Below are positions 51,316-52,289 of a DNA stretch of 52,289 nucleotides, piece by piece; position 1 is the stretch's first letter; the number at the start of each line of letters is the position of its first letter. This DNA is from a virus. The DNA lies in IMG/VR virus record IMGVR_UViG_3300035502_000579; one strand, written 5' to 3'. The position numbers and the translations under genes were made by a program. The notes under the pieces were generated by a model. It did no database searches and was not told the DNA's origin. It saw nothing but the letters and a program-made list of their open reading frames with translations.

Positions 51316-51678
51316 ATGGTATTTAATAATGTAAGAGTATATAATTTTGAGCATTCGATATACGGTATGCGCAATCCAAAGAATAGCTGGGATTTGTCTG
51401 ATAGCACTTTTGGATTGTGCCAATATGATTTTATTCCTGGGATTATTGAAGATATGTGGTCTGCATATAATGATAATACTCCTATGACCGATGAAGATTA
51501 TTTGGAATATGAACAAAATGTACTTATTCATAATGATGAAGATATTTGGGAATTTGCGGCTATTGGGCCAAAAGATATGAAGCTTGCGCAAACTCTTATT
51601 AAGTCTGGCCCTGAACATCGTAAGTTTTTACGCCAGATTTTTGTCACTGTTGATATTACTGCACCGATTTACTGGTAT
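51316..51678 (+). CDS. ThyX-fold (flavin-dependent thymidylate synthase-like) protein, exon 1
   Basis: SD GAGGA then ATG 51316; LIKSGPEHRKFLRQIFVTVDITAPIYWY parallels ThyX [27 protein letters not shown]; frame then hits TAA and enters a GC-rich structured insert. Confidence 0.45.
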
Positions 51679-51947
51679 TAAGAGAAATTCTTTCTGCCAA
51701 TGAAATGCTTTTCCTATTAACTGATAGGGGTTATCTATTTAGATAGCTAACGGGGAACCACCCATTGGAATCCCGTGGGACTCTTTGTTTAAAAAACAAA
51801 GGGCCTGTAGAGACTATTCCCTAGGCCTTCTGGGCGGGGAAGTAGGGCTGTTATTAGTACACAGCAAGATTTTAGGAAACGAAGTCTTTGAAAACCGAAA
51901 TGGCATCCTTCTATAATAATAGGAGTAAAAGATAGTCCACAAATGGG
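51679..51947 (+). ncRNA. putative group I intron in the ThyX-like gene
   Basis: 269-nt GC-rich insert with local hairpins; contains GTAGAGACTATTCCC..GGGGAAGTAGGGC resembling the group I P7/P9 core; begins right after exon T and ends in G; 5 TAG in 140 nt. Confidence 0.45.
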
Positions 51948-52289
51948 AAAGAATTTGACACCTACAAGATCGGGACAACTGCCAACAGCACCTCCACGAT
52001 GCACAAGCTAAGTAGCAAGCCTATCACTATTGATTGCTTTGAAACAGATGATTATGATAAAACTTTAGATATGATTGATGATTGTCAACTTGGAACTAGA
52101 GTTAATTGTTTTATTAATGACCTTGAGCAGCTTCGTCAAAAATATTTAATGTTAAAAGATGAGGATCCTGTTAAAGCTAAAAAATATTGGAAAGAACTTG
52201 TGCGTTGGCTCCCTGAGAGCTGGCTCCAAACTCGTACAGTTACTATGAATTATGAAAATCTTTTGGCTATTTGTTCCAAGAGTCAGCGT
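51948..52289 (+). CDS. ThyX-fold protein, exon 2 (3'-partial, runs off window)
   Basis: KEFDTYKIGTTANSTSTMHKL continues the ThyX alignment in register (ThyX [21 protein letters not shown]) but RHR and S..RY are replaced; later LPESWLQTRTVTMNYENLL parallels ThyX [22 protein letters not shown]; no stop before window end. Confidence 0.4.

Follow-up and report, generated by a model that had tools for sequence, protein, structure and literature searches.

A ThyX-like gene of a large phage with a replaced motif and a predicted T4-td-like group I intron

The split gene and its intron-less allele

The virus record IMGVR_UViG_3300035502_000579 of IMG/VR, a stretch of 52,289 nucleotides (nt) that is called the window here, contains close to its 3' end a gene resembling the thymidylate synthase ThyX and, within this gene, an insert of 269 nt that appears to be a group I intron. 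The open reading frame (ORF) begins with ATG at 51316, GAGGA preceding this start codon by 9 nt. It reads ...FVTVDITAPIYW and then runs into an in-frame TAA stop at 51679-51681. Excision of 51677-51945 fuses it in frame with an ORF that reaches the end of the window; the joined product has 235 residues and reads ...TAPIYWWKEFDTYKIGTTANSTSTMHKL... around the junction. The gene is truncated by the window end and, gauged from a full-length allele of 271 amino acids (P0001, see below), 36 codons are lost. An initial annotation of this stretch had described two exons around a GC-rich insert of 269 nt, and all the elements it described were found at their positions. The length of the insert was upheld as well; its composition is only mildly richer in G+C (39.8%, as against 33.2% in the window and 35-37% in the exons).

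The profile of PHROG 6721, a family listed with 'unknown function', was found to run unbroken across the junction, covering residues 4-231 of the spliced product (E 8.7e-46). Single-piece homologues were detected by tblastn in 13 phage records, among them those of Clostridium phage phiCTP1 and of Enterocloster phages, with a query coverage of at least 80% in 11 of them, and a large protein database holds at least 8,000 relatives of the spliced protein. None of the best 80 IMG/VR loci encoding relatives carries an intron or insert, all of these genes being uninterrupted. The arrangement as two separate genes with a spacer is excluded by the unbroken PHROG 6721 match, the single-piece homologues and the intron-less allele, and the case that the initial annotation had named against itself, a degenerate spacer followed by a separate unrelated gene, fails with it, as the PHROG profile spans the junction. 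Judged from these comparisons, exons 1 and 2 are one gene, not two.

The top database match of the product, P0001 (JGI sample 3300043105), is one residue apart from it (F119 for Y). The contig that encodes P0001, L002, represents an empty-site allele and reads ...TGGTGGAA... where the window has TGGT, the 269 nt and then GGAA. Since this contig gives the empty-site reading, the exact borders of the intron are fixed: the placement is unique, with U51676 as the final exon base and G51945 as the final intron base, in agreement with the exon T and the terminal G that had been noticed at the outset. The two alleles are 99.9% identical over 868 nt up to 51668 and 98.8% identical over 51946-52289. 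They differ at 8 of 705 exon bases, 4 of which lie in exon 1; all 8 differences fall within -21 to +52 of the insertion site, and the other ~1,150 aligned bases contain none. The clustered differences look like a co-conversion tract, and such a pattern would be expected from intron homing with co-conversion or from intron loss via a diverged donor. On the comparison of the two alleles, the intron is sporadic and has been mobile recently, an otherwise identical phage lineage being without it.

Structure of the intron and its relation to the introns of T4

The elements of the intron are listed in Table 1. P10 consists of six pairs, in which the CUUUCU directly 5' of GCCA meets the GGAAAG of exon 2 (51946-51951). 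The order J3/4-P4-J4/5-P5-J5/4-P4' is represented by UAA-CGGGG-AA-CCA...UGG-AA-UCCCG. Introns of the IA2 type have P7.1 and P7.2 between P7 and the P3 3' strand, together with an extended domain 9 made up of P9.0, P9.1 and P9.2 (PMC4227781). The hairpins P7.1 and P7.2 were found at this place in the insert, and the extended domain 9 was not present in it. P9 occurs in most members of the intron class described below, including one located at the same site in a homologous gene (L111). A P3 that was first assigned by hand (UAGGG 49-53 with CCCUA 143-147, insert numbering), along with a CCCUA/UAGGG hairpin, was overturned by the comparison with phage EF1 and the class: insert positions 37-52 form a covarying local hairpin, positions 142-164 form P7.1, and AGUAGGG is single-stranded, as in the td intron of T4. 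The minimum-free-energy fold of the whole insert, in which the guide sequence is paired with the 3' tail, was for this reason dropped in assigning the structure.

Members of the class were searched for in IMG/VR with the exact P4-strand pattern GCTAACGGGGAA..AATCCCGTGGGA, which is present in at least 120 viral stretches (loci L003-L122), and by this count the td-like class is common. P6 contains an ORF-sized insertion in about three quarters of the class copies among the matches listed, and the extra hairpin after P7.2 is seen in about one in four members. Neither P4 nor P7 varies within the class, so that both are uninformative on pairing. P3 was paired at 257 of 336 positions in 48 members, compared with 181 +/- 7.6 when the partners were shuffled; the maximum in 1,000 shuffles was 205, and the observed value lies about 10 standard deviations above the shuffled one. 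Independently of this, RNAalifold gave P7, P7.1, P7.2 and P8, with numerous double changes, as well as two pairs closing P7.2; in P7.1 and P7.2 the covariation amounts to double changes in 4-19 sequences per pair. The same program recovered P5, which covaries, and the first peripheral hairpin (51713-51728), the pairs of which show compensatory changes. For the second one (51730-51747), a mean of 4.6 consecutive terminal pairs was obtained from 45 distinct sequences, as against 0.74 after shuffling. At other insertion sites P1 tracks the exon (UGGGU/GCCCA, AGGGU/GCCCU, AGCGU/GCGCU). Three loci (L024, L049 and L111) carry introns at exactly the same site in homologous genes, with the same guide sequence CUUUCUGCCA and with the spliced reading ..YWWK(E/D).. 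in common. At the level of sequence, the insertion, its exact borders and a conserved, covarying structure are documented by these comparisons.

For a covariance model of the 3' half of the intron, R1, 37 class members were used, with no T4 sequence among them. It matched the T4 td intron over the full model length (41.2 bits, E 2.7e-6), the T4 nrdB intron (29.7 bits, E 7e-4) and the first, Rfam-positive intron of the window (40.1 bits, E 4.7e-6). Both T4 introns are annotated as 'group 1A intron' in NC_000866. The td intron shares with the insert the P4 strands AACGGGGAAC..AAUCCCGUG as well as AACGGGGAAC..ACAATCCCGTG and GACTATCCC..GGGGAGTAGGGTCAAGTGACTCGAAAC..GGAGATATAGTC. Common to the insert and both T4 introns are P7 GACUAU, P7.1, AGUAGGG, P7.2, CGAAA, P8 and the J8/7-P7 strand GAUAUAGUC, and in each case the intron breaks a nucleotide-metabolism-type gene at its most conserved motif. 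Unlike the T4 introns, the insert is only 269 nt long and has no P6 ORF, no P9, P9.1 or P9.2 and no hairpin between P1 and P3; it has two hairpins between the P3 5' strand and J3/4 and an extra one after P7.2, whereas in T4 td the P3 5' strand directly abuts UAAA-CGGGG.

The closest sequence relative in the phage collection is an intron of Enterococcus phage EF1 (MF001358), with ~75% identity over the 3' core. It has the same 5' hairpins, and several helices, also in the P7.1-P7.2 region (51818-51888), differ from those of the insert by compensatory changes, but it resides in another host gene (DNA polymerase III alpha) and has a 669-nt ORF in P6. In the EF1 record (L001, ~1687-2640) the intron, which belongs to the same class and is not annotated, seems to interrupt the gene given as 'DNA polymerase III alpha subunit'; the intron ORF is listed as 'hypothetical protein', and so, under an entry of its own, is the downstream exon. 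Rfam returned nothing for the EF1 locus.

By its architecture and covariation, and by the match of the class model R1 to T4 td and nrdB, the insert is classed as a T4-td-like group I intron with a variant 5' layout, that is, as an ordinary member of a known intron type. This bears out the group I core proposed at the outset, and the description of it as a second such intron is also apt, the first lying at 38826-39158 (Rfam, 63 bits). Once transcribed, the 269-nt intron (51677-51945) would fold into the T4-td-like core. The exon UGGU would pair with the intron GCCA in P1, leaving a U·G pair at the splice site, and CUUUCU would pair with GGAAAG of exon 2 in P10. The guanosine site would be supplied by P7 (GACUAU/AUAGUC), and the intron would end in its terminal G. 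Two transesterifications would then join the exons as UGG-U/GG-AAA, with the slash marking the junction, and restore ..APIYWWKEFDTYK... We infer self-splicing catalysis from this layout.

Table 1. Positions of the ThyX-like gene, the predicted intron and its elements, and the substituted motif in the window
Feature	Position	Strand	Basis or remark
Exon 1 of the ThyX-like gene	51316..51676	+	residues 1-120 and first base of codon 121
P1 5' strand, last four exon bases UGGU, U·G pair at the splice site	51673..51676	+	pairs with GCCA 51696-51699
Predicted group I intron, 269 nt, without ORF, T4-td-like (IA2-type) core	51677..51945	+	empty-site allele, class covariation, R1 model
Internal guide sequence CUUUCU-GCCA	51690..51699	+	GCCA forms P1, CUUUCU forms P10
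P3 5' strand AUGCU	51705..51709	+	pairs with 51902-51906
Two peripheral hairpins (51713-51728, 51730-51747) between P3 5' strand and J3/4	51713..51747	+	
J3/4 UAA; P4 CGGGG/UCCCG; A-rich J4/5 and J5/4; P5 CCA/UGG; P6 hairpin 51777-51806	51748..51806	+	
P7 5' strand GACUAU	51812..51817	+	pairs with AUAGUC 51932-51937
P7.1 (51818-51840), conserved AGUAGGG, P7.2 (51848-51864), optional extra hairpin (51866-51888)	51818..51888	+	
P3 3' strand GGCAU, conserved CGAAAU just before it	51902..51906	+	
P8 hairpin (51908-51925), J8/7 UAAAAG, P7 3' strand AUAGUC (51932-51937)	51908..51937	+	
8-nt 3' tail CACAAAUG with terminal G 51945	51938..51945	+	
Exon 2 of the ThyX-like gene	51946..52289	+	completes codon 121, reaches R235
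Family motif codons D125-H140 (DTYKIGTTANSTSTMH) in place of ThyX RHRxxSxxxxSxRY	51957..52004	+	hhalign register, column conservation

The ThyX fold and the substituted motif

The window protein has no match in Pfam (Thy1 included, E <= 10), NCBIfam or PADLOC. Its structure was predicted by AlphaFold2 from a 74-sequence alignment of the family with a predicted local distance difference test score of 95.9 and a predicted template modelling (TM) score of 0.90. In a Foldseek comparison with the PDB, the top 50 entries are all ThyX or PolB (E ~1e-6, TM-score 0.42-0.59); among predicted viral structures, uncharacterised gut-phage proteins are nearest, followed by annotated ThyX. For comparison at the sequence level, an alignment of nine ThyX sequences was used (A2), consisting of T. 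maritima ThyX, which is identical to PDB entries 1KQ4 and 1O26, and eight phage ThyX. The family was aligned to it by hhalign with an E value of 0.0019 over 146 columns in the APIF register, which is the register in which the initial annotation had aligned both exons; against a single ThyX sequence the E value was 0.075 only. P0252, a family member in which the motif is substituted in the same way (TYKVGVTMNSCSTMH), exceeds the threshold of Pfam Thy1 (29.3 vs 24.8 bits). Homology to ThyX is well supported by predicted structure and modestly by sequence, and on the structural model the product, 271 amino acids at full length, is a diverged member of the ThyX superfamily that keeps the fold.

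Compared with ThyX (Pfam Thy1, PF02511; T. maritima TM0449, PDB 1O26; H. pylori, 3AH5), the family has TYK instead of the RHR motif and a variable insert of ~50 residues near its N-terminus, its window member is unrecognised by Pfam Thy1, and its genes sit in replication modules. PolB, the UMP/dUMP methylase of polyoxin biosynthesis (PDB 4P5A/4P5B; uridine and deoxyuridine monophosphate, respectively), matches T. maritima ThyX at E 3.7e-34. Because of this sequence match PolB is regarded as a close relative of ThyX, the present family being far more diverged. PolB keeps the flavin chemistry.

Over the motif region of T. maritima ThyX, the spliced protein reads APIYWWKEFDTYKIGTTANSTSTMHKL. The motif RHRxxSxxxxSxRY is absent; the family reads TYKIGTTANSTSTMH instead, and only the second serine (S88, corresponding to S137) is kept. 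Of the TYK..S..TM block read in the initial annotation, TYK in place of RHR holds, whereas RY aligns with MH and not with TM in the profile alignment. Canonical ThyX residues, the recovery of which on a correct alignment had been named as the contrary outcome, were not retained in the motif. Among the 74 sequences the ThyX residues are changed as follows: R78 to T (96%), H79 to Y (100%), R80 to K (93%), E86 to S (99%), R90 to M (99%), Y91 to H (99%), R147 to I or V (81%) and R165 to E (77%). Those that are kept comprise H53 (88%), N85 (92%), S88 (100%), L150-P151 (97%), N163 (78%), R174 (100%), H178 (100%) and E182 (92%). In the nine-sequence alignment A2, R90, Y91 and H79 are invariant.

Within the family, Y127, S137, R235 and H238 are conserved at 100% and T126, K128, M139 and H140 at 93-99%. 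Family-specific invariants are R19, D87, K103, R106 and W243, with K103 and R106 at the positions of ThyX T55 and E58. From this conservation across 74 diverse members, the motif is judged to be replaced and conserved, not decayed. In T. maritima ThyX, we take R78/H79/R80, R165, T55 and E58 to contact flavin adenine dinucleotide and S88, R90, R147 and R174 to contact dUMP; R78/H79/R80 presumably bind the flavin phosphate and contribute to dUMP binding. R174 and S88 correspond to the invariant R235 and S137, but R90 is replaced by M and R147 by I or V, as far as the profile alignment tells. If these roles apply, the flavin-phosphate site would have been taken apart and reconstructed with other charges, and the pyrimidine pocket would survive in part.

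Family, function and genomic setting

Clustered at 50% identity, the family (PHROG 6721) numbers at least 2,690 clusters if matches with E <= 1e-3 are counted; a cut-off of E <= 1e-30 leaves 378. In two relatives, on contigs of 131 and 181 kb, the genes are arranged in the order GyrB, GyrA, NAD-ligase, (GIY-YIG), small ORF and ThyX-like gene, followed by an ORF of 117-119 amino acids, YorF, AAA_24, YorH and DnaB, and then by RecJ in the larger contig; the window has the same gene order. The phiCTP1 copy of the ThyX-like gene is flanked by clamp-loader genes on one side and a UvsX-like recombinase on the other, and the annotation of the inspected 24-59 kb of this genome contains no thymidylate synthase. 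Domain fusions were looked for in 20 long representatives. A C-terminal dNMP-kinase domain (deoxynucleoside monophosphate kinase; DNMK, PF21448, 1.7e-17) was found in P0127 and a C-terminal guanylate-kinase-like P-loop domain in P0194. As these kinases come from two different families, the fusions are probably independent. A C-terminal DUF3310 was seen in 2 of the 20 and an in-frame HNH_3/NUMOD4 endonuclease likewise in 2; some of P0230, P0256, P0252 and P0169 have HNH_3/NUMOD4 inserted after about residue 155, others a C-terminal DUF3310. The in-frame endonuclease may represent a further selfish insertion; alternatively, the gene caller may have read through an intron ORF. In the literature searched, no characterised ThyX-like family lacking RHR was found, and nothing relevant on DUF3310.

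Taken as a whole, the locus is interpreted, with good confidence, as a gene of a large phage that is split by a self-splicing group I intron and whose product is a diverged relative of ThyX. The protein would bind a pyrimidine deoxynucleoside monophosphate and act in the nucleotide supply of the phage upstream of dNMP kinase, by non-flavin chemistry. Handling of dNMPs or nucleoside monophosphates is favoured because of the two kinase fusions, which are the best evidence for it. Considered by itself, an enzyme that acts on dNMPs and is not dependent on flavin is the most likely function, by a narrow preference, and the product is probably not a thymidylate synthase. For DNA hypermodification, which had been suggested initially, no evidence was found.

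Several observations weigh against this interpretation. Searches of PDB sequences gave nothing at E <= 10, whether the query was the single sequence or the 74-sequence profile, and the hhalign match to ThyX has a probability of only 14%. The residue mapping is based on a profile alignment and not on superposed coordinates, and the roles of the ThyX residues are taken over from the T. maritima enzyme. Kinase fusions amount to just two clusters among the 20 long representatives, and no dUTPase, dCMP deaminase or similar gene is adjacent to the ThyX-like gene. As to the intron, the window copy has no P9 hairpin, with only 8 nt 3' of P7; the two hairpins that separate its P3 5' strand from J3/4 are lacking in T4 td and depart from the textbook IA2 layout; and a model of the 5' half, R2, finds T4 td weakly (16 bits, E 0.14). 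The Rfam scan recommended in the initial annotation returned no group I (RF00028) match in the insert, neither at the gathering score nor at E <= 10. Since RF00028 attains 40.3 bits on T4 td, which is below its gathering score of 50, leaves nrdB unmatched and gave no match at the pattern sites when 12 other class loci were scanned, this miss is regarded as a sensitivity gap and not as counter-evidence.

The product might instead be a non-catalytic ThyX-fold paralogue that serves as a nucleotide-binding regulator, sponge or scaffold in the replication module, an alternative that is less likely but deserves to be taken seriously. All seven of R78, H79, R90, Y91, R147, R165 and E86, which we take as catalytic or cofactor-binding in ThyX, are replaced, the gene is found among replication and not nucleotide-metabolism genes, and Pfam and NCBIfam recognise no cofactor-binding signature in the protein. 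The replacement motif is, however, invariant or nearly so, which fits an active site better than a binding surface, and the kinase fusions suggest a handover of substrate. A thymidylate synthase that still converts dUMP to dTMP (deoxythymidine monophosphate), with flavin or some other reductant bound differently, appears improbable. It would accord with the kept equivalents of S88, R174, H178, N85, N163 and H53, with P0252 scoring above the Pfam Thy1 threshold, and with phiCTP1, where a family member is present and the inspected region has no annotated thymidylate synthase; but T/Y/K stand in place of RHR, E in place of R165, M of R90, H of Y91 and I/V of R147, and R90, Y91 and H79 do not vary in A2. 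The same low likelihood is given to the insert being a degenerate or non-autonomous intron relic, with the gene inactive in this phage or in need of a trans factor. The lack of a P9 hairpin, of an intron ORF and of an RF00028 match, together with the 8-nt 3' tail, would suit a relic, yet the insert has retained intact all its core helices, its guide sequence and its terminal G, the exons have no frameshift or stop and differ by one amino acid from the intron-less allele, and tails just as short, together with intact exons, occur for two other introns at this site.

Going beyond the preferred dNMP-acting, non-flavin enzyme, a more specific and rather speculative proposal is that of a new ThyX-derived enzyme class that has dropped flavin. 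The old dUMP pocket, together with Y127, S137, H140, K103 and R106, might make or process a non-canonical pyrimidine deoxynucleotide, which would be passed to a dNMP kinase and then to phage DNA or to an anti-defence nucleotide pool. ThyX is a drug target and the textbook case of flavin-relay methylation, and a large phage branch of its fold with a replaced flavin motif and kinase fusions offers a testable entry to phage nucleotide chemistry. As the family has no Pfam or NCBIfam model, its metagenomic genes, in their thousands, go without annotation or are at risk of being labelled wrongly as 'thymidylate synthase' by structure-based transfer. The td-like class, with its at least 120 IMG/VR contigs, is invisible to RF00028, and genes that it splits would be annotated as two fragments, as seems to be the case in EF1. 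The location of a group I intron within the most conserved motif of a nucleotide-metabolism-type gene echoes that of T4 td.

Directly upstream of the ThyX-like gene, an ORF of 91 amino acids (51036-51311) has Walker-A-like (SRASGKTS) and Walker-B-like (VLVDELE) sequences and no family match; it is conserved in L002, and ORFs of similar size occupy that position in L132 and L134. Also just upstream of the ThyX-like gene are a free-standing gene of a GIY-YIG endonuclease and the gene of a Cys-repeat protein (49590-50093 and 50097-51022, with a paralogue at 1797-2765). GIY-YIG is recognised by Pfam at 7.7e-11 with TAG read as Q, and the Cys-repeat protein has W.C.CDCG...SCGC modules. As GIY-YIG takes the same position in relatives with an intron-less ThyX-like gene, its presence does not track the intron.

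The window represents a large tailed phage that is rich in selfish elements and has in-frame TAG codons in a subset of its genes. ORFs that are readable only with TAG as a sense codon (up to 10 in-frame TAGs) lie at 49590-50093, 50097-51022, 1797-2765, 5980-7590, 10419-11219, 15239-16309 and 38457-38825, and the replication genes (ligase, GyrA/B, RNase H) and the ThyX-like gene have no in-frame TAG. TAG, written as # here, mostly aligns with Q in homologues (YVG#S vs YIGQS/YVGQA; DGI#HF vs DGEQHF; KEY#YRD vs KRTQFRD), which suggests TAG-to-Gln recoding of the gene subset. A CUA anticodon occurs in none of the 15-17 tRNAs of the window. The tRNA array at 8263-19448 has 15 (ARAGORN) to 17 (Rfam) genes, several of them called with odd anticodons or anticodon positions (Asn-ATT, Ser-AGA, Ile-TAT). 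A tRNA-like match within it, at 11793-11863, was considered as a suppressor tRNA and rejected, its anticodon loop being of the UGU type and not CUA; its anticodon stem is interrupted by an A·C mismatch.

The first group I intron of the window (38826-39158; RF00028, 63 bits) breaks an endolysin-looking gene, of which the upstream exon (..GVLWHSTGANN..WIQF) is amidase-like by eye, with no Pfam match, and the downstream exon ends in an SLH domain. An ORF of 802 amino acids (28716-31124) has RNA-ligase-like ends (PHA02142 OB fold and RNA_ligase, both weak) and also holds an intein (Hint, Intein_splicing) with a LAGLIDADG endonuclease. Two radical-SAM-type ORFs with CxxxCxxC, at 5980-7590 and 15239-16309, both contain in-frame TAG, and the first is matched by Pfam Radical_SAM.

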